Assembly (NCBI GenBank): GCA_021787845.1 | Contig: JAJYLH010000002.1 | Location: 217,073-281,072 of the forward strand | DNA length: 64,000 bases | Direction of reading: 5' to 3' | Source: Myxococcales bacterium | Lineage (GTDB): Bacteria; Myxococcota; Myxococcia; Myxococcales; JAJYLH01 | In this document: piece after piece, positions 1 to 18,520 of the stretch | Position numbering within the stretch: position 1 is the stretch's first letter | Layout: each line of letters begins with the position of its first letter | Position numbers and translations under genes: made by a program | The notes under the pieces: model-generated | Seen by the model: the letters and a program-made list of their open reading frames with translations, nothing else | Told to the model about the DNA's origin: nothing | Database searches by the model: none

Positions 1-1304
1 TCGGGATGGACCGGGAAGAACCAGGTACGAACCAGGTTCTTGATGCAGGCGGCGACGTCGTCGTTGCCCATCGTGTTCTCGTCGATGGAGACCCCGGTGA
101 CCCGGCCCTGGGTGGTGATGGTGAAGCTGACCACGATTTTGCCCTTCAGGGTCGGGTCGAGCTTGAGCTGCTGGTCGTAGCAACCCTCCAGCGCCTTCTT
201 CCGGTACTGGATGTAGCGGGCGAGCGACTCCTTGTCGACGCTGGTCGACTCGACGTCGATGCCGCCGGAGTCGATGCTGATGTTGGGGACCACCATTCGC
301 CGCCGCTCGGCGAGGGAGGCGTGGTGACCGCCGCCGGCGGCGCTGCCCAAGTCGCCGATTCCGACGGGGCCGCTGCCGCCCGCGAGGCCCTTGCGCTCCC
401 CCAGGTCCGCGCCCGTCGCGATCTTCACGCCGCCCGCGCCGGCCAGCGCCTGACCGATGTCGTTGCTGAACCCGTTCGACTGCTGGAAGAGGTTCTGGAG
501 CGCTCCCGAGCCTCCATTCGAGCCGAGCACGTTGAGCAGGCCCTTCTTCTGCACCTCCGCCGCGAGCTTCGCCTTCCTCGCCGCCTCTTCGGCCGCCTTC
601 TGCTCCGGGGTCTCCGCGGCCTTGGCTTCCGCCTGCTTCTTCCGGTCCTCGGCCCGTTTCTTCGCCTCCTCCTCCGCCTTCTTCTTCGCTTCCTCGGCGG
701 CCTTCTTGGCGGCGGCGTCGTCCTGTTTCTTGGGCTTCTGCGGCATGATGATCTCCGCGAAGCGATCCAAGTCGGCCTGCGTCGGCCGGTCGACGCCCGG
801 GTCGGGGCGCCGCTGGACGGCAGCGATGCCGCCCGCCTCCAACACCACGACCGCCACCAGCGCGAAGGTGAAGATGAAATCCAGCCCGCTGAAGAGCCCC
901 GTCTTGGCGGACGCGGGCAAGGTCCGCTTGGGCGGCGGGGGCGGCTTGTAGGTGACGTGGAAGAAGAAGGTCGCGTCGCCCAGCGCCACCCAGCCGCGGG
1001 TCGTGTCGGGCAGGTCGAGGGCGAAGCCGTACGTCGTCCGGTGGCCCTTGGCCGCGAGGTGCCCCAAGCTCTCGCGCTTCTTGCCGTCCAGCGCCACCTC
1101 GCCGTTCATCCCGTCGGTGACGTGGAGGGTCGGATGCTTCTGCTTGAAGCCGATGAGGACGTGCTCGCGGGGGAGGTTCGACCCGATGAGGGCGATGGTG
1201 TTCTTGCCCGAGCTGCCGACGGTGACCTGGCCCTTCTCCGGAACGTAGCGGTCGTCGACGAGCTTGCCGCCGCGCCAGACGCCGATGTGAAGGAAGTTCT
1301 TCAT
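1..1304 (-). CDS. FHA-like N-terminal domain, TM segment, Lys/Glu/Ala-rich linker and TonB-C-like C-terminal domain protein (GltG/PglI-like); gene continues past the window start
   Basis: Reverse-strand translation from the ATG complement at 1302-1304 gives MKNFLHIGVWRGGKLVDDRYVPEKGQVTVGSSGKNTIALIG...HVLIGF, which resembles a degenerate FHA domain. A hydrophobic segment FIFTFALVAVVVL follows, then a long KKAAEEAKKKAEEEAKK linker. The C-terminal block GKIVVSFTITTQGRVTGVSIDEN resembles a TonB-C domain. Codon position 3 is strongly G/C. The overlapping plus-strand ORF 6..1496 is antisense. Confidence 0.6.
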   Translation of the reverse strand, partial: MKNFLHIGVWRGGKLVDDRYVPEKGQVTVGSSGKNTIALIGSNLPREHVLIGFKQKHPTLHVTDGMNGEVALDGKKRESLGHLAAKGHRTTYGFALDLPDTTRGWVALGDATFFFHVTYKPPPPPKRTLPASAKTGLFSGLDFIFTFALVAVVVLEAGGIAAVQRRPDPGVDRPTQADLDRFAEIIMPQKPKKQDDAAAKKAAEEAKKKAEEEAKKRAEDRKKQAEAKAAETPEQKAAEEAARKAKLAAEVQKKGLLNVLGSNGGSGALQNLFQQSNGFSNDIGQALAGAGGVKIATGADLGERKGLAGGSGPVGIGDLGSAAGGGHHASLAERRRMVVPNISIDSGGIDVESTSVDKESLARYIQYRKKALEGCYDQQLKLDPTLKGKIVVSFTITTQGRVTGVSIDENTMGNDDVAACIKNLVRTWFFPVHP

Positions 1305-1476
1305 CCGAGCCCTCGCCTTTGGACCGCTCCCTCAAGGACCGGCTCTGGCCGCCGAACAGCCGAGACCTCGCGCCTTCGACGAGGCCCGACCTTATACCAC
1401 GCCGAAAGAGACCGGTGGCGACCGCCGCCGGTTCCCTTCCTGGGCGGCTCACGAGCGCATCCCCGGGCGACTCTCG

Positions 1477-1716
1477 TCAGAAGGGGTCCTGCTTGAGCGC
1501 CTGGGTGATCTTCGGCAGGAAGGTCTCCTTGCGCGTCAGGCTCTTGTAGTTCAAGGGCGAGCGGGGAAGGATGTAGAAGGCTTCCGGCTTCTGGATGTGG
1601 CCTTCCACCTTGATTTCGGAGAGGCGGATGACGTGCCGCCGGGCGGTCGATTGCGCCGACGCCGTCAGGCCCGTCGCCATCGCCAGGAAGAACGCCACCA
1701 TCCGCCGCATCCGCAT
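1477..1716 (-). CDS. Small secreted protein (about 79 aa) with a signal peptide; occupies the position of GltF in the Glt G1 gene order
   Basis: ORF 1477..1752 on the minus strand. Internal start MRMRRMVAFFLAMATGLTASA is preceded by a GGAGA Shine-Dalgarno-like sequence and has a hydrophobic signal peptide. Lies between the TPR lipoprotein gene and the TonB-C gene. Confidence 0.4.
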   Translation of the reverse strand: MRMRRMVAFFLAMATGLTASAQSTARRHVIRLSEIKVEGHIQKPEAFYILPRSPLNYKSLTRKETFLPKITQALKQDPF

Positions 1717-1777
1717 CTTCTCTCCTCGCGAGGCCATGGCCGCCGCCGGCATCGGCGCGTGCTGACCCGAAGCGCTC

Positions 1778-3334
1778 CTATCCTCCGGGTCCCCCGAGCT
1801 TCTCCAGGGCAGGGGCGGGAGGCGTCGAGGCGGGCGCTTCGGTCGGCGCCGGCGTCGGCGCCTTCGCCGGCGGGGTCAGGTCGATGTCCGACAGGCCGCC
1901 CACCTTGTTCGCCTCGATGTACGCCGCTTCCTTCTTCGCCTCGGCCGCCGCCTTCTCCGCCGCGAGCTTCTTTTCCTCGGCCCGCTTCTTCTTCTCCTCG
2001 GCTTCCCGGAACTTCATCTCGCCGAGGCGCTTGAGCCGGGCGTTCTCGTCCACGACCTTCTTCTGCGCTTCCGCATAGTAGCGGCCCAGCCGGGAGTCGT
2101 CGCCGCCCGCGGCCCGGTACTTGTCGAAGAAGGCGAGGCTCTTCTCCAGGCGGTCGAGCTTGGGCAGGACCTTGCCGTCCTTCCCCTTGACGTCGCTGTC
2201 GAGGTAGAGGATCGCGAGGTTGAAGTAGGGGTCGCTCATCGAGCTGTCGAGCGCGAGCGCTTTTTCGTACTCCGCTTTCGCCTCGTCGAACCGGCGGGCG
2301 CAGCGGTAGGCGTTGCCCAGGTTCAGGTGGGCCTGGGCGTAGTCGGGAGCGTACCGGACGGCGAGGGAGAGCTCGCGGGTCGCGTCCTCGCAGTCGTTGA
2401 CCTCGTTGAGCATCACCCCGTAGTTGTTGTGCGCTTCGGGGAAGTCCTCCCGCAGGGCGGCGGCCCTCTTGAAGCTCTCGAGGGCGAGGGGCTTCTCCTC
2501 GAGGCCGAGCTGGCAGAACGCGAGGAGGTTCCACACCGCCGGGTCGTTCGGGCTGATCGTCTTCGCGTTGTCCAGCACCTGCGCGGCCAGCTCGTACTTC
2601 TTCTCGCCGTACCAGACGGTGGCGAGGTTGACCATCGCGTCGGTGTTGCGCTCGTCGACCTTGAGCACCTGCTTCGACTCGGCCTCGGCGGCGTCCAGGC
2701 GTCCCTCGGCGATCATCACCCGCACGAGCTGGTTGCGGAACGGGATGTCCCGCGGATGGGCGAGGATGCGCTGGCGCAGCTCCGCCTCCGCCCGCTGCTC
2801 CTCGTGGTTGCGCAGGAACAGCCGGGTGAGGTTCGCGCTCGCGTCGTCGTAGTCGGGCTTCAGGCTGAGCGCGGTCTCGTACTCGTCGACCGCCTTCTGG
2901 TCCTCGCCCTGGCGCTCGTAGAGGACGCCGAGGTTGTAGTGGCCGGCCCACGACTGCGGCATCTGTTTCGCCGCCCGCTGGTAGATGCCCATCGCCACCT
3001 GGTCCTTGCCCGCCTGCAGCGCCCGAAAGCCGTTCTGGAACATCAGGGTCAGCCGCGACTGGTCCGCCTTCGCCGCTTCGGCCGCCTTCTTGCGTTCCTC
3101 CGCCTTGGCCTCGAGCTCTTGCTCCTCGCGCTGCCGGAGCTTCCCGGCCGCCTTTTCCTGCTCGGCGGGCGAGAGCGTCTTCGCGGCCGGCGGCTTCGGC
3201 GCGGGCGCCGCCTTTTTCGGGAGGGCTCGAGCGGTGCCGGGCGGCGGCGTCTTCTTGACCTGCGTCGCGGGGGTCGCGCAGCCGAGGAAGGCGAGAGCGC
3301 CGGCGCCGATGGCGAGGGCGAGGCGGCGGGTCAT
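1778..3334 (-). CDS. TPR-repeat lipoprotein (519 aa) with a C-terminal Lys/Glu-rich coiled-coil and Pro-rich tail (GltE/AglT-like)
   Basis: The internal Met of ORF 1778..4078 gives MTRRLALAIGAGALAFLGCATP, with a lipobox LGC. The ATG at 3332-3334 overlaps the upstream gene stop as ATGA. The protein carries multiple TPR-like helical repeats (YNLGVLYERQGEDQKAVDEYETALSLKPDY and others). Confidence 0.7.
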   Translation of the reverse strand: MTRRLALAIGAGALAFLGCATPATQVKKTPPPGTARALPKKAAPAPKPPAAKTLSPAEQEKAAGKLRQREEQELEAKAEERKKAAEAAKADQSRLTLMFQNGFRALQAGKDQVAMGIYQRAAKQMPQSWAGHYNLGVLYERQGEDQKAVDEYETALSLKPDYDDASANLTRLFLRNHEEQRAEAELRQRILAHPRDIPFRNQLVRVMIAEGRLDAAEAESKQVLKVDERNTDAMVNLATVWYGEKKYELAAQVLDNAKTISPNDPAVWNLLAFCQLGLEEKPLALESFKRAAALREDFPEAHNNYGVMLNEVNDCEDATRELSLAVRYAPDYAQAHLNLGNAYRCARRFDEAKAEYEKALALDSSMSDPYFNLAILYLDSDVKGKDGKVLPKLDRLEKSLAFFDKYRAAGGDDSRLGRYYAEAQKKVVDENARLKRLGEMKFREAEEKKKRAEEKKLAAEKAAAEAKKEAAYIEANKVGGLSDIDLTPPAKAPTPAPTEAPASTPPAPALEKLGGPGG

Positions 3335-6300
3335 GGCCCGCCTCCCGGGAGCGGCGCGCTGATCGGCGTTCTGGAGGGCGGCACCGCTTTCGGTGGGGGT
3401 GCCGGGGCGGGCGCGATGGCGGTCGTGGTGCCCGGCGCGGGAGTGCCGCCGGCCGGCGCCGGAGCGAGGATGGCGGCCGGGCTCCCGATGCCCGCCGGAC
3501 CGGGCGCGGCGCCGACGACCACCCGGAAGGGCGTGGTGTAGGTGCCCTGCTGGGTCGTGACCTGGACGGGACCGCTCTTGGCCCCCGCGGGGACCTGAAC
3601 GGTCAGCGTGGTGGCCGTGGCCGTCAGGACGTGCAGCTCCAGCTCGCCGAGCTTTAGCGCGATGGCCGCCGGGTCGGTGCCGAAATTCTGACCCGAGACG
3701 GTGAGCGTCTGGCCGACCTGCGCCTCGCGGGGAACGACGTTCTGGATGGTCGGCGCCTGGGTGGCGAGGTCGGCCTTGTACTCGACCGGCTTGACCCCGG
3801 AGGCGTCGGCGGCGAGCGGCAGCGCGCTCAGGTCGTCGAAGATGAGCTTGGCGCGCGGGTCCTTGAGCGCGATGCAGTCGGAGGGCGAGACCTCGCAGAC
3901 CTTTTCGCTCGTCAGCTTGGTCCACTGGTCGGAGATGCGGACCTGCTTCGCCTTGGTCTGCGCGGTGACGTAGGCGTTGGTCGCCTTGTCCAGAATCGGC
4001 GCCACCAGGTTCCCGACCTGGGCGAGGTACATGCCGCAGGCCTCGTCGCCGCCCAGCGCCTTGACTTCCGGTGGGCACGGCGCGCTCGTCAGCTTGTTCG
4101 CGAACTCCTCGTACAGGTTACCGATGCGGAAGAGGGCGGCCATCATCCACTCGGGCCACTGGTACCTGACGATCACGGTCTCGTAGTCCTTCTTCACCTC
4201 GTCGAGCTTCTGGGCGAGGGCGGTGAGCTGGGTCTTCATCTCCCGGGTCAGGCGCTTGCCGCGCCCGCGAGGGTCGAAGCGCATCCGCTTGAAGGCCTGG
4301 TACTCCTCTTCGACCAGCTCGAACTTGGCCTTGGAGGCCGCGCTCGCCGCCAAGAAGTTCTGCGGGGTCATCCGCTTCTGGTCGAAGGCCCGGACCGAAG
4401 AGGCGTACGCCTGGAGCGCCTGCCGCGGCTTCTCCAGGTCTTCGTAGGCGTCACCGATGCGCTGGTAGGCCTCGACGATTTTCTCCGCCTGCTTGGGCTT
4501 GCGGTCGTAACGACGGATGAAGGCCTGGAGCCGGTCGATCATCCCCTGCTCGTCGTGCATCCGCTGGTACATGAGAACGCCGCGGTACTCCATGTCGGGG
4601 GCGTCCGGTTGGTCCGGGAACCACTTGGCGTAGTCGCGATAGGCGTCCGCCGCTTCCTGGTAGCGCTGCATCGCCTCCAGATCCTTGGCGGCGTTGAACT
4701 GGGCGCTGACCCGGTCCTGATGGAACGCGGGCTTCGTGTAGCTGCGCACGAGCAGTTCGTAGTCCTTGATCGCCTTGTCGAAGTCGAACGCCTTCTCCGC
4801 GTTCTCCGCCACCGAGAAGAGCGATTTCTCGGCGAGGTCGCTCTTCGGATAGTTGGTGTAGAGCCGCTCGTAGGTGTTCATCGCGCTGTCGAACTTGCGC
4901 TCGGCGTTGTAGCAGGCGGCGGCGTTGTAGAGCGCCTTGTCCGCGTCGACCCACGGCTGCTTCGCCTCGCCGCTCTTGAGCTCCCGCTCCGTGTCGTCGA
5001 CGATGCTCAGGTAGAGCTTGGCGGCCTCGTCCCACTCTTGCTTCTGCATCGCCTGGTTCGCCCGCTCGAACCGGGCGCCGTACTTCAGGAGGCGGACCTT
5101 CTCGAACTTCGCGGGGTCCGCCTGGACGAGCTTGGACTCCTTGAGCATCCGGCTTGCGGTCTCTTCCACCTTCGGCCAGTTCTTGACGAGCAGGTAGCTC
5201 GTGAGGATGTCGTCGTAGGCGTTGCCGGCCTGGACCGAATTCGGGTAGCGCTTGATCACGTCCTCGTCCCGCTGCCGGGAGACGTCGAAGTGGAAGTAGG
5301 TGAAGTAGGTCAGCGCGGCCGCGTAGGACAAGAGGGGCGCGTCATTCGCCGTCGGAATCCGTTGCAGGTAGGTGTCCGCCGCCTGGATCAGCGCGAGGCG
5401 AATCGGTGGAATCGCCACCGGCTTGAAGCCCTTTACGTCCTTGCAGCTCTCGGCGGTACAGGGCTCGCGGGGCTGGAGCACCTGGTTCTGCTCCTCCTGC
5501 TCGATCTCCTTCTGGTACGACAGCACCACGTAGTAGGCCGCGTCCGCCAAGTACTTGTCGTCCTCGTTCGAGTCGCGCACCCGGGCGTACTCCTTGGCGG
5601 CGGCAAGGAACTGGAGCGAATGGAACAGCGTATCCGCGTGATAGAACTCGATTTCATAGAGATTCTTGGTATGGGAGAAAGCGGTCAGGAAGTCGCCATA
5701 GCCCTTGGCGGCTTTCTGGTACTCCTGGAACGCCAGCGCGGCGAGCTGCACTTTCTTCTCCGGCGGCGTCTTCGGATCCGCGGCCTCTTTCTCGTACTCG
5801 ATCGCCTGCTCGTGATGGTACTGGGCGGTCGCGAGCAGGCTGTTGCGCACGAGCTCGGTCGCCGCCTGAATCACGTCGTGGTCGGCCTGGTTCGCCTTGG
5901 CCCAGGCGCTCTTCGGACCATAGCGGTCGACCAGCGCCTGCCGCTCCGCGAACGCCTGATCCTTGTCGCCGGCGCGCGCGTAGCACTCGACGATGCGCTC
6001 GTCCACCTTGGGCGCGCCCGGCGCGTTCGGGTCTCGCTCGAGCACGATGCGGTAGGCGTCGACCGCCGCCAGGTACTTGGTCGAGTCGAACAGCACGTCG
6101 CCCAGCCGCTTGAACAGCTCTCCCTCGTAGGGCCGGTCTCCGATGCGCTGGAAGTAGGCGACGAGCTTCTGCACTCCGAGGAAACGGACGGTCCCATCGG
6201 GGTTCTTCACCGTCCCGCCCCAGGTGTCGTCGGCAAAGGAGATGGCCGTGTACTGCATCGCCTCCTTCCACAGCTCGCCGCCCCCGGCCTCCGCGTTCTT

Positions 6301-7314
6301 CTTGCGCTCCGAGTAGTAGTCGAGGAGCTTCACGAACGCGTCGACGCCATGGTCGAAGTCGTTCAATCGGTAGTAGGACCAGCCGAGCTTGTAGAGCGCC
6401 TTGTCGTAGAGCGGCGACTTCGGAAAAGCGAGCACGTGCTGGTAGGCGCCGGCCGCTTTCGCCATCCGCACCCGCGGGTCCCCGGGGCTCGTGTCGTTGA
6501 AGTAGTACTCGCCGATGCGCATCCACGCCTCGGGCACGTGCCGCGAATCCGGGTACTTCGCAATCAGCGTCCGGAAGGTGTCCCGTGCTTCCTTCCCCTC
6601 GCCCTGCTCGTTCAAACACCACCCGAGCAGATAGTAGATGGTGTCGATCAACCGGTACCGCGGGAAGCGGGTGATGATCTGCTGGTAGAGGGCGATGGAC
6701 TTGTCGAAGTTTTCCGCGCCGGTGGGCGGGGTACCGGCCGTGCCGAGCTTGGCCGCTTCTTCATAGGCCGCCAGCACCTGGTCCGCGTCGTCGACGCTCT
6801 TTTCATAGTATAGCTCGGCGAGGCGGGTCATCGCGTCGGCCGTGTAGCGCAGCGAGTCGGGATAGCGTTCCAGGAACCGCTCGAACAGGCCGATGGCGTC
6901 CAATCGATCGGTGCGCTCGTCGCTCTCCAGCTCGCGGATGCCCCGGTCGTACTCGCCGGAAATCCGACCCTTCTGCTCCTGGAACTGGCGCTCGATCACG
7001 TCCTGGGCGTCTTCCCGGTATTCCTTGACCTCGCTCTGGAAGGCCGCGAAGGCTCGGGAGAATTCCGCGAGGTCGGCCGCGCGCGCCTCGGTCGCGTCTT
7101 TCTTCTGCGGAGCGGTGACCGCGCTGATCGCGGTCGAGGGCAGCGCCGGCGCCACGACCTTGGGAGCGGTCGCCGCCGGCGCGGGTGCGCTCTCGGGGGG
7201 CGTCACCAGGGTCTTCGGCGGCGAAGGCTCGGGGCTGAACAGCTGCGCTCTCGCTCCCCACGAGAGGCCCAGGACGGCGACGAGCGCCAGACCCGCCCGG
7301 CCGCTAGTCCGCAT
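3331..7314 (-). CDS. Large secreted TPR-repeat protein (1327 aa) with a C-terminal IPT/TIG-like domain (GltD/AgmU-like)
   Basis: Signal peptide MRTSGRAGLALVAVLGLSWGARAQ. TPR-like repeats recur throughout the protein. The C-terminus has an Ig-like fold, VVPREAQVGQTLTVSGQNFG...GPVQVTTQQGTYTTPFRVVV. The gene overlaps both neighbouring genes, which is operon-style coupling. Confidence 0.75.
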   Translation of the reverse strand: MRTSGRAGLALVAVLGLSWGARAQLFSPEPSPPKTLVTPPESAPAPAATAPKVVAPALPSTAISAVTAPQKKDATEARAADLAEFSRAFAAFQSEVKEYREDAQDVIERQFQEQKGRISGEYDRGIRELESDERTDRLDAIGLFERFLERYPDSLRYTADAMTRLAELYYEKSVDDADQVLAAYEEAAKLGTAGTPPTGAENFDKSIALYQQIITRFPRYRLIDTIYYLLGWCLNEQGEGKEARDTFRTLIAKYPDSRHVPEAWMRIGEYYFNDTSPGDPRVRMAKAAGAYQHVLAFPKSPLYDKALYKLGWSYYRLNDFDHGVDAFVKLLDYYSERKKNAEAGGGELWKEAMQYTAISFADDTWGGTVKNPDGTVRFLGVQKLVAYFQRIGDRPYEGELFKRLGDVLFDSTKYLAAVDAYRIVLERDPNAPGAPKVDERIVECYARAGDKDQAFAERQALVDRYGPKSAWAKANQADHDVIQAATELVRNSLLATAQYHHEQAIEYEKEAADPKTPPEKKVQLAALAFQEYQKAAKGYGDFLTAFSHTKNLYEIEFYHADTLFHSLQFLAAAKEYARVRDSNEDDKYLADAAYYVVLSYQKEIEQEEQNQVLQPREPCTAESCKDVKGFKPVAIPPIRLALIQAADTYLQRIPTANDAPLLSYAAALTYFTYFHFDVSRQRDEDVIKRYPNSVQAGNAYDDILTSYLLVKNWPKVEETASRMLKESKLVQADPAKFEKVRLLKYGARFERANQAMQKQEWDEAAKLYLSIVDDTERELKSGEAKQPWVDADKALYNAAACYNAERKFDSAMNTYERLYTNYPKSDLAEKSLFSVAENAEKAFDFDKAIKDYELLVRSYTKPAFHQDRVSAQFNAAKDLEAMQRYQEAADAYRDYAKWFPDQPDAPDMEYRGVLMYQRMHDEQGMIDRLQAFIRRYDRKPKQAEKIVEAYQRIGDAYEDLEKPRQALQAYASSVRAFDQKRMTPQNFLAASAASKAKFELVEEEYQAFKRMRFDPRGRGKRLTREMKTQLTALAQKLDEVKKDYETVIVRYQWPEWMMAALFRIGNLYEEFANKLTSAPCPPEVKALGGDEACGMYLAQVGNLVAPILDKATNAYVTAQTKAKQVRISDQWTKLTSEKVCEVSPSDCIALKDPRAKLIFDDLSALPLAADASGVKPVEYKADLATQAPTIQNVVPREAQVGQTLTVSGQNFGTDPAAIALKLGELELHVLTATATTLTVQVPAGAKSGPVQVTTQQGTYTTPFRVVVGAAPGPAGIGSPAAILAPAPAGGTPAPGTTTAIAPAPAPPPKAVPPSRTPISAPLPGGGP

Positions 7315-9733
7315 CGTGCAGGACCTCGTTGAAGCGCTCTTCCAGCCGGTGAATCGCCTTGCTCTTCTCCTTTCCGAGCACCACGATCCGGTCGGTCTTG
7401 TCCTGCTTCTTCGCCCAGGCGACGTCGATGATGCCGACGTCGGCCTTCAGGACGATGTCGTGGAACTGGGCGCCGACCCGGTGGAAGGCGTTGTACGCGA
7501 TGGCGCCCAGGAGGTGATGGCTCTTCAGGTCGACGCCGTCCACCTGGCGCTGGTAGCCGTCGAGGACGGCCTCCTGCTGGGCGACCTCCTTGCGATAGGC
7601 GTCGGCCCGGTCGTCGGCCTTGGTCCGCATCTGGCCGCGCAGGCTCGCGAGCTCGGTCTGGAGAGACTCGATTTCCCCACGGGCTTGCTGCACCCGGGCG
7701 AGGAGCGGCCGGCTATCCCCGGGGACGTAGGGCATCGCCTTCTCGATGAGCTCCTGCATCGCGTCGAGCTGCTGGCGGTACTTCTCGCGCAGTTGCTCCT
7801 CGAGCTGCCCACCGCTCGCCTGGCTCGCGGCGGTTTCCCGCTCGGTCGCAATCTGGTCGACGACCGTCTGCCGCTGCGCGTCGAGCTGATCGATCAGCCG
7901 GGCGAACTCGGAGAACTCCGTCCGCCGTTCCTGGTCCAGCTCGGGGTTCGGCTTGCGCTCGGCGCGGGTCGAATTCCAGTAGTACTGGAGCCCCACCAGG
8001 TTCGCCCGCAGCTCCGCCATCTTGTCCCGCAGCCGGAACGCGAGCCGGTCGAGGGCGTCGATGCGCTCCAGGAACCGCTCCTTGCGATCTTCGTACTCGG
8101 CCTGCGTCTTGGGGAGGAGCTTGAACTTCTGGTCCAGCCTCTCCCGGGCGGACTCCAGGTCGGCGAGGCTCTTCTCGAGGCCGGCGGGCAGGCTCGACCC
8201 GAGCAGCTTCATCTCCAGCCGGACGAGCTCGCTCTCGAGGGACTCCAGCTCGTTCGATTGCTCGATGGCGAGGCTGTTGCCCTCGCGCAGCTCCGGGAAG
8301 CGGTCGAGCCGGGCGCTCTGGAGGGCGTCGAGGATGCGCCGGGCCAGCTTCCGGCTCGCCTCGATGCCGCTCTGGTCCTGCGAGAGCTCGCTCGCGATGA
8401 CGTGCGCGTCCTTGACCTGCTGGTCGAACTGGACGAACGGCCGCGCCGGCTCGGGCAGGAGCCCCAGCACGTCCACCTTGGGACCGGCGTGCTCCAAGAG
8501 CTGGTCGAAGTAGGACACCGGGTCCGGCCGGGACAAGAGCGCCCGAATCTGCTGGTAGACCGGCGAGTAGGTCGACACGACGTCGTTGAACGTCGCCGAG
8601 GCCTTGCCGTATTGCTTGAGCTCGAGCTGGAGGTTTCCCTGGAGCACCTGCGCGTTGGGCGCCACCTGGCTGTCCCGGCCGATGATCAAGAGGATGTCCG
8701 CGGTCTGGAGAGCGAGCTCGTAATTGCCCATCTTCACGAAGGTCGCCGCGGTCTCGAAGAGGGCCTCGTTGTACTCGGCCGAGTTCCGGGACACCTCGTT
8801 GTAGTGATCGGCCGCCTGGGAGAGCTTCCCCTCTTCGAAGAGAATCCGCGCCAGGGCGAGGTTCGCGAGGTTCTTCGCCTTCGCCAGCTCCTTGCCGCCG
8901 GAGGCAGCGGGCAACGCCAGAATCTGCTCTTCGAACCCGGCCGCCTGCCCCAGAGCCCGCGCCTTGTCCTTCGTGAGCTCAGCCTGAAGCGCCGGTTCTT
9001 GCTCCGGCGGATCCTTCTTCTGCAAGGCGGCGACCTGCGCCTCGTCGGTCTGCGCCTCGAGCACCTCGAGCGCGCCCCGGAAGTACAGCGCCGGCGCGAG
9101 GTAGCGCCCCCGCGTCACTTGCGCGAACTCCTGGTCCGCCCGGCCGATGCGCACGTCCTGGGGGAGATCCTGGCGCTTGGCGATCCACTTCGCGTAGAGG
9201 TAGGTGACCTCGGGACGGGTCCTGCCCGCGGCTTGCGCTACCGCGAAGTACTTGTCCACCCCCTCGGCATCGCCGGTCTTGTCCGCCAGGTCGATCAGCC
9301 GCACGATCGAATCCTCGTAGAGCTCGCCCACCGGCAGCACCTGCACCGCCTGCCGGAAATAGCGCAGCGCGTCCAGGTACGACTGGGTCTGGTAGAACGA
9401 CTCGGCGAGGTAGTAGAGCGCTCGTGCCTCGTGCGGACCAGCCTGGAACTCGGGCACGTCCACCACTTCCAACAACAGCGCCGCGCACCCCTCGAAGTTG
9501 TCGAGCAGGAACTGGGTCTCCGCCTCCGAGAAGCGCTGGTTCGCCTTGGCGAGCGCCGGTTGCCCGCTCTTCTCCACGTACTCCCGCACCAGCCCCAGGC
9601 GCTGGCGCACCTGAGAGATGCTCGCCTCGACGCGGTCGAGAGTGCGCGCGTCGTCCTCGGCGGCCCGCGCGCGGGCCCCGAGGGAAAGCGGCACCCAGAC
9701 GAGCACCGCCAGGAGGGCGGCGCGTCCGGTCAC
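7304..9733 (-). CDS. Secreted TPR and coiled-coil protein (809 aa)
   Basis: GTG start at 9731-9733 overlaps the stop of the upstream gene as GTGA. Signal peptide LLAVLVWVPLSLGARARA. N-terminal TPR-like repeats are followed by a long coiled-coil region. Confidence 0.65.
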   Translation of the reverse strand: MTGRAALLAVLVWVPLSLGARARAAEDDARTLDRVEASISQVRQRLGLVREYVEKSGQPALAKANQRFSEAETQFLLDNFEGCAALLLEVVDVPEFQAGPHEARALYYLAESFYQTQSYLDALRYFRQAVQVLPVGELYEDSIVRLIDLADKTGDAEGVDKYFAVAQAAGRTRPEVTYLYAKWIAKRQDLPQDVRIGRADQEFAQVTRGRYLAPALYFRGALEVLEAQTDEAQVAALQKKDPPEQEPALQAELTKDKARALGQAAGFEEQILALPAASGGKELAKAKNLANLALARILFEEGKLSQAADHYNEVSRNSAEYNEALFETAATFVKMGNYELALQTADILLIIGRDSQVAPNAQVLQGNLQLELKQYGKASATFNDVVSTYSPVYQQIRALLSRPDPVSYFDQLLEHAGPKVDVLGLLPEPARPFVQFDQQVKDAHVIASELSQDQSGIEASRKLARRILDALQSARLDRFPELREGNSLAIEQSNELESLESELVRLEMKLLGSSLPAGLEKSLADLESARERLDQKFKLLPKTQAEYEDRKERFLERIDALDRLAFRLRDKMAELRANLVGLQYYWNSTRAERKPNPELDQERRTEFSEFARLIDQLDAQRQTVVDQIATERETAASQASGGQLEEQLREKYRQQLDAMQELIEKAMPYVPGDSRPLLARVQQARGEIESLQTELASLRGQMRTKADDRADAYRKEVAQQEAVLDGYQRQVDGVDLKSHHLLGAIAYNAFHRVGAQFHDIVLKADVGIIDVAWAKKQDKTDRIVVLGKEKSKAIHRLEERFNEVLHDAD

Positions 9734-10665
9734 TGCGGGCTTCCTTGGGCGCTCGCCGGGGAACCCGCGCTCGCCTGCGCTCCGGCCGTCCCCGGCGGCT
9801 TGCCCAGGTTCTTCTGGACGCTCATCTCGAAACGCACGTCCGGCCGCTGCGCGAACTGGAGGGTGATGCCCGATTTCTCCATCACGATCGCGGTCACCTT
9901 GGTGACCTTGTCCGGCTCGACGTTGAAGGTGTACGAGCTCGTCAGCTTCAGCCGCATCCCGTCCAGGTAGGAGAAGATGCCGTAGCCGTGGCCGCGAAGC
10001 TGGTACTGCACCGCCATCACGTGCTGCCCCGGCGGAATGCGCTGGTCGAAGATGACGAACTCCTCCCGGTCGTTCAACGCCCCCGTCTCGTCCACCTTGG
10101 TGTAGAGCGGCGCGCTGTCCAGCGTGTAGGCCGCCGCCGTCAGGATGTAGGACGAGCCGAGCTCGTTCTTGTGGTAGATGGCGAGCTTCGCCCCGCCCAG
10201 ACCCGCCGACCCCAGGACCACGCCGGCCAGGGTCTCCAGCCGGTACTTCGTCCGCAGGATCTTTTCCTTGAGGTCGCTGACCTGCTCCTCGAGCGCCTTG
10301 GTCTTCAGGTCGAAAGCCTCTTCCGCGGTGGAGGTCGCCTCGGTGGGGCCGCTTCCCGCCGGGGCCGCGACCGTGGGAGAGGCGACACCGCTGCCGGCCG
10401 CCGGCACCGCCGCCGGAGCGGGCGACGCGGCGCCAGAAGCGGGCGTTGCCGCCGCGGTGCCCGGCGCGCTCGCGCCCGGGGCATTCGAGGCGGGCGCGCT
10501 CGCCGCGGGGGAGGCGGGAGGCGGCGCGACCGGCGCCACGATGGGAGCGGGTGCGCCGCCGTCCTGGGCTTGCGCTCTCGGTCCCAGGCCCAGCGCCGTC
10601 AGGGCGACGAGCGACCCGAGCGCGAACACCCGCGGGAGCGAAATCCGGTGCTGTCGAGTCACCAC
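9730..10665 (-). CDS. Secreted protein (311 aa): signal peptide, Ala/Pro-rich low-complexity linker, coiled-coil, and a C-terminal globular domain of unknown function
   Basis: MVTRQHRISLPRVFALGSLVALTALG signal peptide, then a long PAPxxAS-type linker. Codon bias is consistent with coding. The gene is translationally coupled to the downstream TPR gene. Confidence 0.55.
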   Translation of the reverse strand: MVTRQHRISLPRVFALGSLVALTALGLGPRAQAQDGGAPAPIVAPVAPPPASPAASAPASNAPGASAPGTAAATPASGAASPAPAAVPAAGSGVASPTVAAPAGSGPTEATSTAEEAFDLKTKALEEQVSDLKEKILRTKYRLETLAGVVLGSAGLGGAKLAIYHKNELGSSYILTAAAYTLDSAPLYTKVDETGALNDREEFVIFDQRIPPGQHVMAVQYQLRGHGYGIFSYLDGMRLKLTSSYTFNVEPDKVTKVTAIVMEKSGITLQFAQRPDVRFEMSVQKNLGKPPGTAGAQASAGSPASAQGSPQ

Positions 10666-10921
10666 CGATGGCCCTCGTGGAGCTCCAACGGAAACCGCCG
10701 CCCCACCGGAGAAAAACCCGCTGTTTCTACCAGACCGGCGCGCCCCGCGTCAACGAACGCCCAGGCGCCTCGGGCGCCTCGATGCTACCGGAGCCCGCCG
10801 CGCCCGCCGTGCCGCCCGTCACGCCTCATCGGCTGCTCGACGGCCGGCTTCAACGATAGACACCGGCCGGGGTCGGAACCGACAACCCGAAGCCCGCCGC
10901 CCGAGCCGCTCCCCCGGCGTC

Positions 10922-11509
10922 CTAAGTGTTCTTGCGCAGGTCGGCGAGGACCAGCTTCGCCACCTGCTTCAAGGTTTCGAACACCCCCACCCCGGTCGGC
11001 GCCACCGCCTCGAATTCGGGCGCCCCCAGCGGGTTCAAGAGCCGCCGCATCTCGTCGACCGGCGCCGCGTTGGGCAGGTCCCGCTTGTTGTACTGCATCA
11101 CGTACGGCACCTTGGAGAGCTCGTCGCCCTGGTCCTGGAGGTTCGTCAGGAGGTTCTCGACGCTCTCCACGTTCGCGTCCATCCGCTCGTCCTGGCTGTC
11201 GGCGACGAAGACCACCCCGTCCAGGTTCTTCAGGATCAGCTTGCGGGAGGCGTCGTAGAACACCTGGCCGGGCACCGTGTAGAGATGGAACCGGGTCTTG
11301 AACCCTCGAATCTGCCCCAGGGCGAGGGGGAAGAAGTCGAAGAAGAGGGTCCGCTCCGTCTCCGTCGCCAGCGAGATCAGCTTGCCCCGGGCCTCCTGCG
11401 CGGTCTGGGCGTGAATCCACTGCACGTTCGTGGTCTTGCCGCACAAGCCGGGGCCGTAATAGACGATTTTGCAGGTGATCTCGCGGTTCGTGTAGTTGAT
11501 GAACGACAT
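10922..11509 (-). CDS. mglA: Mutual gliding-motility protein MglA, a Ras-like small GTPase
   Basis: MSFINYTNREITCKIVYYGPGLCGKTTN...FKTRFHLYTVPGQVFYDASRKLIL...YVMQYNKRDLP. Near-identical in length (195 aa) and motifs to M. xanthus MglA, including the P-loop GPGLCGKTT and switch II TVPGQ. Confidence 0.95.
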   Translation of the reverse strand: MSFINYTNREITCKIVYYGPGLCGKTTNVQWIHAQTAQEARGKLISLATETERTLFFDFFPLALGQIRGFKTRFHLYTVPGQVFYDASRKLILKNLDGVVFVADSQDERMDANVESVENLLTNLQDQGDELSKVPYVMQYNKRDLPNAAPVDEMRRLLNPLGAPEFEAVAPTGVGVFETLKQVAKLVLADLRKNT

Positions 11510-11521
11510 CCGCGTCAGGCC

Positions 11522-11995
11522 CTATTCGGAGAACATGTTGTCGATGTCGTCGTCCGTGATTTCCGCGAACAGAGCGGCACCGGTCTCGGTCTTGCGCATC
11601 ATCGTCTCGAACACCCGCGCCAGCTCCTCGCTCGCCTTCTTCACCCGGAGCCGGACCAGCCCCAGCGACGAGCGGCTGTCGAAGATCACCACCAGGATCA
11701 CCCGGCTGGCGACGATGCTGATGTGAACGTTGTCGCGCTCGCCCTCGTGGAAGATCTGGTTGAACTCCTTCTCGTTGATGAGCTTCGCGATGCCCCCGGC
11801 CGCGGCGATCTGTCCGGCCATCAGCGAGGCGAGCGAGGTGGTGTCGAGGTTCTCCGTCTGCCCGGTGCAGGCGATGAGCTGCCCGTTCTTGTCGCCGAGG
11901 AACACGACCTTGGCGTTCGCCTCCCGCGTGAGCCGCTCGCACACCCGGTTGATGCGCTGGAACTCCTCGTCGTACATGACGAACTGCGAGGACAT
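11522..11995 (-). CDS. mglB: MglB, roadblock/LC7-family GAP for MglA
   Basis: MSSQFVMYDEEFQRINRVCERLTREANAKVVFLGDKNGQLI...SRVILVVIFDSRSSLGLVRLRVKKASEEL...DDDIDNMFSE. Highly similar to M. xanthus MglB, including the acidic C-terminal tail. Lies immediately upstream of mglA. Confidence 0.95.
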   Translation of the reverse strand: MSSQFVMYDEEFQRINRVCERLTREANAKVVFLGDKNGQLIACTGQTENLDTTSLASLMAGQIAAAGGIAKLINEKEFNQIFHEGERDNVHISIVASRVILVVIFDSRSSLGLVRLRVKKASEELARVFETMMRKTETGAALFAEITDDDIDNMFSE

Positions 11996-12312: not shown

Positions 12313-13251
12313 TCAGCCCCGACCGGAGCGGAAGAGCTCCACCACCTCGGCGAGCGGCTCGGCGAGCGACGGCGAAGGGCGGAAGCCCAGCAGCTCCCTC
12401 GCGCGGGTGATGTCCGCGAGCGAGTGGCGCACGTCCCCCGACCGCGGCGGCGCGCGGCGCACCTCCACCGGGCGGCCGACCAGCTCGCCGATGCGGTCCA
12501 CCAGCTCGACGAGGGTGATGCGCTCGCCCCGCGCGACGTTGATCACCTCCCCGGTCGCGCGGTCGCTCTCGGCCGCGAGCAGGTTCGCCTGCACCGCGTC
12601 GCGCACCGGGGTGAAGTCGCGGCTCTGGAGGCCGTCGCCGAAGACGGTGACCGGCTCTCCCCGGACGGCAGCGCCGACGAACTTCGGCACCACCGCCGCG
12701 TACTCGCTCGTCGGATCCTGACGGGGACCGAAGACGTTGAAGTAGCGCAGGGCCACCGTCTCTAGGCCGTGGGTGTCGAAATAGACCCGGCAGTAGTGCT
12801 CGCCGGCGAGCTTCTGCACCGCGTAGGGCGAGAGCGGCTGCGGCTTCATCGACTCTTCCTTGGGCAGCGTCGGGGTATCGCCGTAGGCCGAGCTCGAGGC
12901 GGCGTAGACGAACCGCTTCACCCCGGCCCGGCGAGCGAATTCCAGCATCGTCACCGTGCCGGCGCAGTTCGCCCGGTCCGAGCCGATGGGGTCTTTGACC
13001 GACCGGGGCACCGAGGGAATCGCCGCCTCGTGGAAGACCCAGTCGACGCCGGCGGTCGCCTTCTGGGCCGTCGCCGGGTCGGCGCAGTCGCCGACCACAA
13101 GCTCGATGCGCCCCTCGAGCTCCTTCAGATTCTCCCGGCGTCCGGTGGAGAAATCGTCGAGCACCCGCACCCGGTCGCCCCGGGCGAGCAGGGCCTCCAC
13201 GAGGTGCGAGCCGATGAAGCCGGCTCCGCCGGTGACGAGGCAGGTCGCCAT
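12313..13251 (-). CDS. NAD-dependent nucleotide-sugar epimerase/dehydratase (SDR family)
   Basis: MATCLVTGGAGFIGSHL Rossmann GxGxxG motif. An YxxxK-type catalytic region sits around SPYAVQK. 312 aa. The longer overlapping ORF 12071..13288 is in a different frame and was rejected. Confidence 0.85.
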   Translation of the reverse strand: MATCLVTGGAGFIGSHLVEALLARGDRVRVLDDFSTGRRENLKELEGRIELVVGDCADPATAQKATAGVDWVFHEAAIPSVPRSVKDPIGSDRANCAGTVTMLEFARRAGVKRFVYAASSSAYGDTPTLPKEESMKPQPLSPYAVQKLAGEHYCRVYFDTHGLETVALRYFNVFGPRQDPTSEYAAVVPKFVGAAVRGEPVTVFGDGLQSRDFTPVRDAVQANLLAAESDRATGEVINVARGERITLVELVDRIGELVGRPVEVRRAPPRSGDVRHSLADITRARELLGFRPSPSLAEPLAEVVELFRSGRG

Positions 13252-13367
13252 GGACCAACTCCAGGGCTGCCGCTAGGCGGCAGAGCAATCGGGAGGCGCG
13301 TCCGGCCGCGGTCCCGGAGAGAAAAGGATGGGGCCGAACGGCGGCGGCGCAACCTCGGGCGTCCCCC

Positions 13368-13664
13368 TCACCGGGACAGCCCGCAGGTCTTGCGCCCCGC
13401 CTCGGTCTGCAACTGGTCGCAGCCCTCGCCGTTCGGACCGATGAGCTTCTCGCAGCCGGGCAGAAGCTGCTGGCAGACGGAGAGCTGCGCCGCGGAGGGC
13501 GTCGCGAGCTGCTCCTGGGCGGTGGCCGCGTTCTGGCAGTTGGTTCGCTCCGTCTGGGTCAACCCCTGGCAGAGGCAGAGCGTCGTCTGGATGTTCTCGC
13601 AGGGGTTGGCGCAGCCGGCGAGGAGGAACAGCGCGAAGAGGGCGGCGGCGGTCCCGCGAATCAT
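13368..13664 (-). CDS. Small Cys-rich lipoprotein (about 98 aa)
   Basis: Internal start MIRGTAAALFALFLLAGCANPCEN with a lipobox LAGC. The mature part is rich in Cys and Gln. Confidence 0.4.
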   Translation of the reverse strand: MIRGTAAALFALFLLAGCANPCENIQTTLCLCQGLTQTERTNCQNAATAQEQLATPSAAQLSVCQQLLPGCEKLIGPNGEGCDQLQTEAGRKTCGLSR

Positions 13665-13744
13665 GAGCGCTTTCTCTGGCCAAGAGCCGCTTGCAGGAGA
13701 GACCCCCAGCCGGTCGACGGCGCGCCAAGGCGCCGGGACGGAAG

Positions 13745-15094
13745 TTAGCGCGTCGAATCCGCCGGCGCGAGGGAGGGGCGGCCGACAGAGTGGTAGAGGA
13801 GGCCGGCACGAGCGGCGGTCTCGCGTTCCCAGAGGTTGCGTCCGTCGAAGATCCACGGCTGTCGCAGGCTCTCCTTGAGCCGCGCGAAGTCCGGCCGCCG
13901 GTACTCCGGCCAGTCGGTGACGATGGCGAGCGCGTCCGCGTCCCGGACGGCGTCGTACATCGTCTTGACGAACTCGAGGCTCCCGTTCGCCTCATGGCGG
14001 CCCAAGACCTCGCGCGCGCGCTCGGTCGCGACGGGGTCGTGCGCCAGCACCCGGGCGCCCTGCGCGATGAGGCCGTCGATGACCACCAGGCTCGGCGCCT
14101 CCCGCATGTCGTCGGTCGACGGCTTGAAGGCGAGGCCCCAGACCCCGATCGTCCTGCCCGAAAGCCCGCCGGCCGGCTGGAACGCGCGCGTGAGCTTCTC
14201 GACGAGGAGCCGCTTCTGGCGGTCGTTCTGCCGCTCCACCTCGTCGAGGATCCCGAAAGCGCTCTCGGCCTCCCTCGCGGTGGCGGCGAGCGCCTGGACG
14301 TCCTTCGGGAAGCAGCTCCCGCCGTAGCCGACGCCCGGGAAGAGGAACGTCTGCCCGATGCGCCGGTCGGTGCCGACCGCCCGGCGCACGAGCTCGACGT
14401 CCGCCCCGACCTTCTCGCACAAGGCGGCGATGGCGTTCATGAACGAGATGCGGGTCGCGAGCATCGCGTTCGAGGCGTACTTCGTCAGCTCCGCGCTCGC
14501 CGGGTCCATCACCAGAATCGGCGCGCCGGTGCGGCAGAACGGCTCGTACAGCTCGCGCATCACGTTCGCCGCCCGCGCGGTGCGTGCCCCGATGACCACC
14601 CGGTCGGGCTTGCGAAAGTCGAGGATCGCCGCGCCCTCCTTCAAGAACTCCGGGTTCGACACCACCTCGACCTCGGCCCTGCCCAACTCGTGCAAGAGGT
14701 TCGTCACCCGCTGGTTCGTTCCCACCGGGACCGTGCTCTTGAGCACCAGGATCTTAGGACCGCTCCCGCTCTCTGCCACGGTCTTCGCCACCTCGAAGAC
14801 GTAGGTCAGGTCCGCCTCGCCGTTCTTCCCCGGCGGCGTCCCCACCGCGCAGAAAACGACGTCCGCCTCTCGCGCGGCGGCGAGCCCGTCGGTGGTGAAG
14901 GAGAGCAGGCCCTCCCGACTGCAGCGCTGGACGATGTCGGCGAGGCCCTCTTCGTAGATGGGGATCTCGCCGGCCTTGAGCCGCTCCACCTTGGCCGGGT
15001 CGGTGTCGACGCAGGTCACGTCCCGTCCGGAGTCGGCGAAGCACGCTCCCGCCACGAGGCCCACGTAACCGGTTCCGATCACCGCCAGCTTCAT
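13745..15094 (-). CDS. ugd: UDP-glucose 6-dehydrogenase
   Basis: MKLAVIGTGYVGLVAGACFA has the NAD-binding GxGxxG motif. GGSCFPKD contains the catalytic Cys. Length is 449 aa from the internal start at 15094. Confidence 0.9.
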   Translation of the reverse strand: MKLAVIGTGYVGLVAGACFADSGRDVTCVDTDPAKVERLKAGEIPIYEEGLADIVQRCSREGLLSFTTDGLAAAREADVVFCAVGTPPGKNGEADLTYVFEVAKTVAESGSGPKILVLKSTVPVGTNQRVTNLLHELGRAEVEVVSNPEFLKEGAAILDFRKPDRVVIGARTARAANVMRELYEPFCRTGAPILVMDPASAELTKYASNAMLATRISFMNAIAALCEKVGADVELVRRAVGTDRRIGQTFLFPGVGYGGSCFPKDVQALAATAREAESAFGILDEVERQNDRQKRLLVEKLTRAFQPAGGLSGRTIGVWGLAFKPSTDDMREAPSLVVIDGLIAQGARVLAHDPVATERAREVLGRHEANGSLEFVKTMYDAVRDADALAIVTDWPEYRRPDFARLKESLRQPWIFDGRNLWERETAARAGLLYHSVGRPSLAPADSTR

Positions 15095-15352
15095 CGACCT
15101 CTCCGAAAAAGGCGCCGCCCGGGCGCCCAAAGGGGCGAAACAGTCGGTCATGCGCCCCCGTCACGTCAAGCGGCGGCGGGCCGGCCCCTCACCTGGCCTT
15201 CGACTCTCGGTCCGCCCGCAAGCCCCCGCGGGCACCGACCCACCAACCGCGAACGGCCCGCGCGGCACGCAACTTCTCGACGCGGTGCGACACATCGCGG
15301 CGGGCGTCCCCGCCGATGGAAGGCCGGCCGGATCCGCCGACCGGGCCGGCCG

Positions 15353-18300: not shown

Positions 18301-18520
18301 CTGCGTAGGCGATGCGCCGCTCGCGGCTCGCCGCCAGCTCCTTGATGCCGCGCGGGTGGAGGTCGGTGTTGAACAGACGGTGGAGCCGCTCCGGGCGCTG
18401 GTCCTTGCGCACGAAGTCGTCGAGAAGCTCGACGAGGTCGTAGTCTTGCGGGTCGAAGAAGAACGCCGGTCGCCGCTGGTCCAACGCCGCTCGCGAAAAG
18501 CCCTCTCGCAAGCCTTTCAC
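15353..18520 (-). CDS. Large protein of unknown function (about 1055 aa): N-terminal soluble region of about 650 aa plus a C-terminal polytopic membrane domain
   Basis: Long ORF with strong G/C bias at position 3. The first 200 codons of the track ORF overlap the DUF72 gene in another frame and look non-coding. A GTG at 18518-18520 overlaps the DUF72 stop as GTGA and is a likely start. At least six predicted TM helices (IGLIPAFFSFYLTNDWWVLAWLGAFIWFGITGL..., and others). No recognisable catalytic motif. Confidence 0.55.
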   Translation of the reverse strand: MKGLREGFSRAALDQRRPAFFFDPQDYDLVELLDDFVRKDQRPERLHRLFNTDLHPRGIKELAASRERRIAYAVVRLLDSLDAGLAAERLVALKALRDEIIEGGGEALLLNTGRALLETMKHLVRERGDYWHQVELAHDFFSAVSGRPHEVRRKLAEYHLLEMSEKWNQVAFDHHVHDAYTKGRKAPTHLIVDAWIKGIREMTVIYYFLVSPEAVLELIEAASVMGVAVQPGIEVSGRFRGKYVQLIWTPRGLSTPREYQELFAEPRTRAFFDEGRQVVAYQTKNLLDLLHAFNRDHLPRLNAEVRLALPPLDPEAFLRFVGVGQPSRSHLADYLHQQLVEHVEARLAELRAQWERSAPGERAELEARLERLDRLTADDLKETYLSAEANPAVANVHLPLDDAPGLLKLSPAEMVARLKDLRSGSGITLNPTNLSPADVLEILYDCKGAITHLEIFNLKDYQRGQNPWVREIGRVRRVLNSHNPIACKRMIHELVAQVEEAEPDPSARTDQVGRLRHILAHMPELLSFYSQAPLLARVGTDSTGRARAWAGMGLAVAPTLTHRARREFQRRPGTREIVPVTSEAVLQSTWRPRHSHLKALDLAFGVLRHLPGLRDFGRVRDDSFVLVPDATLMADRGNILTLGGVPERRRNGLALTPPGGSDSHSGSASGWFRWRFLNTNAKNVAKILIGLIPAFFSFYLTNDWWVLAWLGAFIWFGITGLRNIIQTVVGGAGLIRSKLLKWKDLVSWSRVADSLLYTGLSVPLLDDLVKHLILDEGMGITTKSAPWALYALIGLANGVYIFGHNVWRGLPRQAAVGNFLFRTPLAIPVAFGINALALKLLVAGGMEVGSAFVMLQAWAAVINKLGSDIVAGFIEGIADRNVNLSQRMRDYQSKLSRLLDVHGRLEALFPDVDVVESLASPKEFFRTLGKEAGDLEKQQIINALDLMYMWMYQPRARAVFEQQLGACAPEERQIILRSQRLLERKRPISEMFIHDLVGKNFSPPLAFYLDRSASYLRDMRELAGKLGVEWNRTKTLEPAGATPSGSADERRAAAG

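Follow-up and report, generated by a model that had tools for sequence, protein, structure and literature searches.

Positions 1-11995 of a 64-kb stretch from an uncultured member of the Myxococcota (contig JAJYLH010000002.1, positions 217,073 to 281,072; hereafter the window, meaning this whole stretch) carry eight genes on the minus strand. These are mglB and mglA, the polarity GTPase module, followed by p311 and five genes whose products resemble the Glt proteins of Myxococcus xanthus gliding motility (the six together are called the Glt-like block). The window open reading frames (ORFs) were checked by translation and by profile search against Pfam and NCBIfam, and third-position GC content was computed only for the ORFs passing the filter. 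All eight genes described in an earlier sequence-only reading were found in that order and at those places, with the correction that the tetratricopeptide repeat (TPR) lipoprotein has 518 amino acids (aa) and not 519. Gene content, order, orientation and the nature of each product are as follows.

11522-11995, minus strand: mglB, Roadblock/LC7 GTPase-activating partner of MglA, 157 aa
10922-11509, minus strand: mglA, Ras-like polarity GTPase, 195 aa
10666-10921, minus strand: intergenic gap of 256 nucleotides (nt) that separates mglA from the Glt-like block
9730-10665, minus strand: p311, secreted protein, first gene of the block (position of MXAN_1924), 311 aa
7304-9733, minus strand: p809, GltC-like periplasmic TPR and coiled-coil protein, 809 aa
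3331-7314, minus strand: p1327, GltD-like periplasmic TPR scaffold, 1327 aa
1778-3334, minus strand: p518, GltE-like TPR lipoprotein, ATG at 3334, N-terminus ...AFLGC, 518 aa
1477-1752, minus strand: small secreted protein resembling GltF, 91 aa (79 aa in the public contig call, which starts at the ATG at 1716)
1-1304, minus strand: TonB-type protein of the inner membrane, GltG-like, truncated at the window edge, with 434 of its 449 codons inside the window

The full length of the GltG-like protein (449 aa) was taken from a public metagenome contig matching the window (ena:ERZ27233565:k141_817038, 85 kb; locus L003). In the five genes that passed the filter, mglB through p1327, third-position GC ranged from 0.90 to 0.96. 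Since more than 80 other genomes contain homologues of all eight genes in the same order, the array is not a product of chance. Overlaps occurred only at p311/p809 (GTGA, 4 nt), p809/p1327 (11 nt) and p1327/p518 (ATGA, 4 nt), and gaps separated mglB from mglA (12 nt), mglA from p311 (256 nt), p518 from the gltF-like gene (61 nt) and the gltF-like from the gltG-like gene (172 nt). Overlap chaining is limited to the centre of the array: the GTGA and ATGA junctions claimed earlier held at p311/p809 and p1327/p518, and the mglB-mglA, mglA-p311 and last two junctions proved to be gaps. The single transcription unit that had been thought probable is not implied by this spacing. Given the 256 nt between mglA and p311 and the 'mglBA operon' of the literature, mglBA is probably a transcription unit separate from the block. 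Scanning the 256-nt gap revealed neither a promoter-like nor a minus-strand terminator-like pattern.

The P-loop, TxxGQ and NKxD motifs together define the MglA family. The translated window MglA contains the P-loop GPGLCGKTT, YTVPGQ (TVPGQ replacing DxxGQ) and NKRD, matched Pfam Arf above its cut-off and was 77% identical to Myxococcaceae MglA, which identifies it as a group 1 Ras-like polarity GTPase. Members of this group are small GTPases of about 195 aa, with a P-loop, Thr for Asp in G3 (TxxGQ) and NKxD (see also PMC3000849). Window MglB scored 59.5 bits against Pfam Robl_LC7 (cut-off, 23), matched the NCBIfam MglB model with E 4.6e-21, under the equivalog cut-off, and was 65-70% identical to the mglB products of two other loci (L004 and L084). 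The Robl_LC7 gene thus lies directly upstream of mglA at 12-nt spacing, as in an MglA/MglB module.

The gene order was compared with that of M. xanthus, in which Luciano 2011 (PMC3169522) described the paralogous clusters G3, G4 and G5, with MXAN_1922 as the G4 gltD homologue. In that paper, mglA is MXAN_1925 and mglB is MXAN_1926 (Table S1), and MXAN_1919, 1920, 1921, 1922 and 1923 encode proteins of 447, 91, 490, 1111 and 809 aa (Table S3), against 449, 91, 518, 1327 and 809 aa for the corresponding window proteins. In the G4 rows of Table S3 in PMC3169522, the 'homologue of' column is apparently reversed (e.g., MXAN_1922 versus MXAN_4868), in conflict with the main text, where MXAN_1922 is the gltD homologue, and with the protein lengths.

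Three Myxococcaceae loci (L084-L086) were used as proxies for M. xanthus. They were found with the MglA of a Corallococcus representative, which is 97% identical to what we take to be the M. xanthus MglA sequence; no M. xanthus protein was among the matches listed in the search with window MglA. The three loci have the order mglB (159 aa), mglA (195 aa) and genes for proteins of 257/260, 803, 1112/1114, 482/495, 91 and 448 aa. All eight window proteins were colinear with them at 32-77% identity: 65% for MglB, 77% for MglA, 49% for p311 (against the 257-260-aa proteins), 32% over about 800 aa for p809 (against the 803-aa protein), 38% over about 1100 aa for p1327 (E = 0, against the 1112-1114-aa protein), 46% for p518, 52-58% for the GltF-like protein (against the 91-aa product) and 35% for the GltG-like protein. 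For the five Glt-like proteins, E values ran from 1e-17 down to 0. Upstream of mglB, the three loci carry recR and a divergent three-gene kinase operon (masABK-like), matching the published M. xanthus neighbourhood, in which mglBA forms its own operon and masABK lies divergent upstream.

By colinearity and full-length similarity, these comparisons show orthology of the window array with the Myxococcaceae locus. The layout is a new example of an arrangement already present in M. xanthus, where the G4 cluster and mglBA have the same eight genes, order and orientation and nearly equal lengths. We consider it likely, with a probability of about 0.82, that the window holds the uncultured-Myxococcota counterpart of mglB-mglA-MXAN_1924-MXAN_1923...MXAN_1919, that is, mglBA and the 'G4' paralogue of the Agl-Glt transducer. 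The sequence-only reading had regarded the Glt genes as unlinked to mglBA in M. xanthus; this is correct for the gliding cluster G1 and incorrect for G4 (MXAN_1919-1923), which lies beside MXAN_1925/1926. The window differs from M. xanthus G4 in that an IPT/TIG domain and a Pro/Ala tail are added at the C-terminus of its GltD-like protein, sugar-nucleotide genes and not divergent masABK lie upstream of its mglB, and identities to the Myxococcaceae counterparts are only 32-77%.

Next, the profile matches of the Glt-like proteins were examined. The earlier assignment of the last four genes as GltD/E/F/G-like was upheld by these matches and by synteny with MXAN_1922. The best NCBIfam match of p809 was gliding_GltC (NF033756; 63 bits, E 2.4e-17), short of the cut-off of 450, and that of p518 was gliding_GltE (NF033758; 97 bits, E 1e-27), short of 225. 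The GltF-like protein weakly matched CglF (NF033764; 17 bits, E 0.0035; cut-off 90, not reached), which is GltF in the literature, and its Corallococcus-type counterpart in L084 matched the same model with 29.5 bits (E 5.5e-7). The GltG-like protein matched gliding_GltG (NF033760) with 148 bits (E 3.7e-43) over profile positions 208-629 and missed the cut-off of 650. The proteins of L084 repeated this pattern, with best matches to GltC, GltE, CglF and GltG below the cut-offs and an AgmX/PglI match above its own. Because the scores lie far below the equivalog cut-offs of the true gliding proteins, the window members are paralogues of the true Glt proteins. The 809-aa protein, which had been thought to lack a Glt counterpart, has GltC as its best match and equals MXAN_1923 in length (809 aa); it is GltC-like and not new. 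In p1327, Pfam matched TPR repeats and, at residues 1188-1256, an IPT/TIG domain. This domain and a Pro/Ala-rich tail are encoded at window 3331-3759 (minus strand), and no match to the protein beyond residue 1186 was found in the other loci compared (tblastn, L004-L086). Judging from this comparison, the IPT/TIG domain and the tail of the GltD-like protein are lineage-specific. In two Anaeromyxobacteraceae loci, an extra lipoprotein of about 545 aa is encoded between the GltD-like and GltE-like genes (L007:15577-17226 and L009:15569-17194), and the one in L007 has TPR repeats by Pfam.

The GltG-like protein has a putative cytoplasmic FHA-like domain, a transmembrane helix, a Lys/Glu/Ala-rich linker and an AgmX/PglI C-terminal domain. 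The last of these (NF033768, myxo_SS_tail) scored 76.8 bits, above its cut-off of 40, and the TonB_C and TolA models stayed under their own cut-offs. In the earlier description of an FHA and TonB-C protein, the FHA label corresponds to sub-threshold matches of the window member only (Pfam Yop-YscD_cpl, E 0.036; FHA, E 0.17), and the top match of the N-terminus in a PDB profile search was ArnA (E 0.34). The N-terminal region aligned with the part of GltG termed the central FHA domain in PMC11761067. The N-terminal FHA domain of GltG (residues 1-114), predicted in the same paper to bind GltI, has no counterpart in the GltG-like protein. In L084, the C-terminus of a MasK-like kinase (L084:3734-3991, minus strand) weakly matched the AgmX/PglI-type domain of the GltG-like protein (E 7e-5, 25% identity).

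The first gene of the block, p311, encodes a protein with a signal peptide and a Pro/Ala-rich linker, and with two conserved parts, a helix and a domain of about 150 aa. The gene precedes the GltC-like gene in all loci extending that far. Pfam, NCBIfam and PDB profile searches with p311 returned coiled-coil noise only. A single-sequence AlphaFold2 (AF2) model had a predicted local distance difference test score (pLDDT) of 39, and hence a 69-sequence alignment was used; the resulting model (pLDDT 88) showed a long helix and a nine-strand beta-sandwich. A GltA/GltB-type outer-membrane beta-barrel was considered for p311 and ruled out, because the predicted fold is a helix and beta-sandwich. This agrees with the earlier statement that the 311-aa protein has no Glt counterpart. 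The conserved part (window 9778-10344, minus strand) matched 1052 representative clusters at E<=1e-3, and the helix and beta-sandwich family has no Pfam or NCBIfam model. In this family, P0254, P0255 and P0267 have 4-5 copies of the domain, and P0013 is a p311-type domain fused to a GltC-like protein. By this count of relatives, p311 founds a large unannotated family.

A genome scan with an alignment of the GltC-like protein, built from 16 significant p809 homologues, retrieved 80 species loci from Myxococcia, Anaeromyxobacteraceae, Polyangia, Kofleriaceae, and Persicimonas, 'Bdellovibrionales' and Sumerlaeota metagenome-assembled genomes (MAGs). The block from p311 through the GltC-, GltD-, GltE- and GltF-like genes to the gltG-like gene was colinear and on one strand in 80 of 80 loci; all six genes were present in 47, and the remainder were cut by contig ends. 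Among the 58 informative loci, defined as those with at least 2 kb of upstream sequence, mglBA was upstream of the block in 6 and not upstream in 52; with L004 added, the linked loci amounted to seven of the 80. A block directly downstream of mglBA, the location of M. xanthus G4, was found in the window and in L084-L086, L004-L009, L056, L087 and L088, the last two of which belong to the window's own lineage and repeat its mglBA and block layout. In neighbour-joining trees of the GltD-like and GltC-like proteins, the linked loci (window, L084 and L004-L009) formed one clade, and linked L056 paired with unlinked L023 as sister to this clade. Of the seven linked loci, six could be placed in the GltD-like tree, and all six belonged to the clade. 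Three mglBA loci of other lineages (L089-L091) lay after dnaX-ybaB-recR without a Glt-like neighbour. On this sampling, the linkage of mglBA and the block is a feature of a clade, not a general or clearly ancestral state. The sequence-only reading had stated that such linkage was proposed as ancestral. Our literature search found no paper proposing this; Luciano 2011 (PMC3169522) does not mention ancestral mglBA linkage, and Wuichet and Søgaard-Andersen 2014 described group 1 MglA neighbourhoods that 'vary widely'. With mglBA upstream in 6 of 58 loci plus L004, this claim was not sustained.

In addition, motor genes were found inside the block of some relatives. TolQ/TolR/TolR genes, that is, one MotA/TolQ/ExbB and two ExbD/TolR proteins (L004:10231-12042), lay between the gltF-like and gltG-like genes in L004, L005, L008, L011, L031 and L048; the L006 contig ends after the second of the three genes. 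Matches above Pfam cut-offs were obtained for MotA_ExbB and ExbD in L004 and for MotA_ExbB in L048. Most of the remaining loci, and the window, had no motor genes inside the block. No TolQ/TolR-like match was found anywhere in the 64-kb window, which in this respect falls outside the core complex sensu Luciano 2011. The motor-bearing loci were placed at or near the base of the GltD-like and GltC-like trees. Most probably, the G4-type block originally included a motor of its own, as the Geobacter 'core complex' does, and this motor was lost or moved in several lineages.

By analogy with the Agl-Glt system, the GltG-like protein would sit in the inner membrane and be energised by a TolQ/TolR-type proton channel, here presumably encoded elsewhere in the genome. 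Its long periplasmic linker and TonB-like C-terminal domain would engage the GltD-like TPR pillar. Four further parts would complete the periplasmic scaffold, namely a lipoprotein (GltE-like), a peptide (GltF-like), a connector (GltC-like) and p311. For GltD, GltG, GltC and GltF, the parts played in the periplasmic complex follow the structural model in PMC11761067. The block contains no outer-membrane barrels (GltA/B/H), adhesin, GltI or GltJ. Since there is no outer-membrane module or adhesin, the array would be a 'core complex'-type force transducer and not a gliding engine, which fits the normal motility of M. xanthus carrying a polar insertion in MXAN_1922, unlike mglA mutants (Luciano 2011, PMC3169522). 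The mglBA adjacency would be inherited synteny inside one clade. MglA-GTP may position or activate the complex, and by analogy with gliding, where MglA binds GltJ and AglR (PMC11761067), MglA control of G4 is plausible.

Several points weigh against this interpretation. The adjacency of mglBA and the block has been kept across deeply diverged lineages (only 32-39% identity between their GltC- and GltD-like proteins). The two gene sets invariably share one strand, with gaps of about 50-260 nt, and this could reflect a functional or operonic link and not mere synteny. Orthology to M. xanthus G4 is drawn from Myxococcaceae proxies and published locus tags and lengths, the putative roles of G4-type clusters from homology, and the energising step is assumed for a 64-kb window without motor genes.

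In another explanation, along the lines of the sequence-only reading, mglBA and the Glt-like genes are one ancestral operon encoding an MglA-controlled Glt core complex with novel accessory subunits, which later became the source of gliding control. The clade with same-strand adjacency includes not only the window lineage but also Myxococcaceae, Anaeromyxobacteraceae and other MAGs; L056 is linked too, in the sister branch; L004, L005, L006 and L008 also keep motor genes, with the full module in L004, L005 and L008; no terminator pattern follows mglA; and the Agl-Glt parts GltJ and AglR are bound by MglA (PMC11761067). However, mglBA is missing upstream in 52 of the 58 informative G4-type loci, it is also missing in L031 and L048, which bear motor genes and are basal, and the three mglBA loci elsewhere (after dnaX-ybaB-recR) have no Glt-like neighbour. 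The gap behind mglA is 256 nt, against overlapping genes in the block core, the literature search found no such proposal, and the polar MXAN_1922 insertion caused no motility defect, unlike mglA mutations. We consider an ancestral operon unlikely for these reasons. Equally improbable in our judgement is a bolder form of the G4 reading, in which G4-type clusters would be a third distinct class of Glt-like envelope machine under direct MglA/MglB control, with p311 as a seventh conserved subunit, and the 11-gene module of L004, L005 and L008 (L006 to its contig end) would lie near the state preceding MglA control of Agl-Glt gliding. This module consists of mglB, mglA, p311, the gltC- to gltF-like genes, TolQ/TolR/TolR and the gltG-like gene. 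Bdellovibrio Bd2492, a TPR partner of MglA, was considered as a possible member of a Glt-like operon and dropped because the paper shows a TamAB operon.

Two further explanations concern the identity of the block itself, and we give very little credence to either. If the array were the organism's actual gliding (Agl-Glt) machinery, with true GltC-G orthologues, the best hidden Markov model matches to Glt families and the C-D-E-F-G order would be accounted for, but scores of 63, 97 and 148 bits against equivalog cut-offs of 450, 225 and 650 would not, and the G4 proteins of a gliding family (L084) score equally low. Genes for GltA/B/H/K, GltI/J and AglRQS are also absent from the block and the window, and the GltG-like protein lacks the N-terminal FHA domain predicted to bind GltI. 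An envelope system of the general Tol-Pal or TonB type, having TPR partners and no relation to Glt, would explain partial YbgF/CpoB, BamD and TolA matches and a weak Pfam TonB_C match. However, p809, p518 and the GltG-like protein scored better with the GltC, GltE and GltG models, respectively, than with generic models, the AgmX/PglI domain passed its cut-off where TonB_C and TolA failed, no pal, tolB or TonB-dependent receptor gene is present, and the block shows synteny with the G4 Glt paralogue already published. TPR proteins without a Glt signature and a C-terminus of the TonB or TolA type, an outcome considered beforehand in the sequence-only reading, were not observed: GltE and GltG were the best models, and AgmX/PglI scored 77 against 40.

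Set against known systems, the G4 counterpart in the window shares with Agl-Glt (G1 gltD-J, G2 gltK/B/A/C and M1 aglRQS) the homologous GltC/D/E/F/G types and the D-E-F-G order. The GltG-like protein resembles GltG in being TonB-like and in its AgmX/PglI C-terminal domain, and it has a putative FHA-like domain close to the membrane. Unlike Agl-Glt, the window block lacks GltA/B/H/K, CglB, GltI, GltJ, the N-terminal FHA domain and an in-locus motor, and it has the extra p311; the M. xanthus G4 mutant glides normally. The Nfs (G3) spore-coat system is likewise a single contiguous Glt-like cluster with a non-motility role and a TolQR-type motor encoded elsewhere, but its NfsA/B/H outer-membrane homologues are absent from the window block, and no sporulation link is known for G4. 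The 'core complex' found in Gammaproteobacteria, Geobacter and Fibrobacter, where one locus holds gltC, D, E, G and aglR, Q, S, shares the Group B gene set, and its Geobacter form resembles L004, L005, L008, L011, L031 and L048 (L006 in part), with TolQ/TolR/TolR in the block. Compared with the core complex, the window locus lost or moved the motor and has extra gltF-like and p311 genes.

The locus as found is of low importance, because a model organism already has this layout and the Glt-like genes have been on record since 2011. The G4 system is conserved across Myxococcota, and the p311 family, the in-block motor and the mglBA linkage are handles on its role. They allow one to ask about the task of a Glt-like machine that serves neither gliding nor sporulation, and about its possible control by MglA. 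In the literature searched, no paper besides Luciano 2011 was found citing MXAN_1919-1924, no discussion of the mglBA/G4 linkage within one clade was found, and MXAN_1919-1924 are not discussed in the text of a 2026 M. xanthus transposon-fitness preprint.

Finally, the genes around the array were inspected. An ORF at window 15353-19120 (minus strand), of 1255 aa from the first start or 1055 aa in the public call, has strong coding bias and no Pfam match at E<=1e-5. Just past the window start, the gltG-like gene of the public contig is followed by a gene for a 1315-aa FG-GAP protein (L003:12263-16210), and an FG-GAP/beta-propeller protein (1571 aa) likewise follows the gltG-like gene at L088:20232-22358; the FG-GAP protein of the window lineage had no tblastn match in L004-L086. 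Downstream of the Glt-like block and the FG-GAP gene, this contig carries dCMP deaminase, dnaX and ybaB (L003:16809-20240), and in L089-L091 and L084-L086 mglBA often lies just after dCMP deaminase-dnaX-ybaB-recR. The displaced housekeeping genes suggest a rearrangement or insertion around mglBA. Directly upstream of mglB, at window 12313-15151 (minus strand), are genes for a NAD-dependent sugar epimerase and a UDP-glucose 6-dehydrogenase, which were also found in L087 and L088, with an additional Wzy_C/TPR protein in L087. A polysaccharide link is possible from these sugar-nucleotide genes beside mglB.

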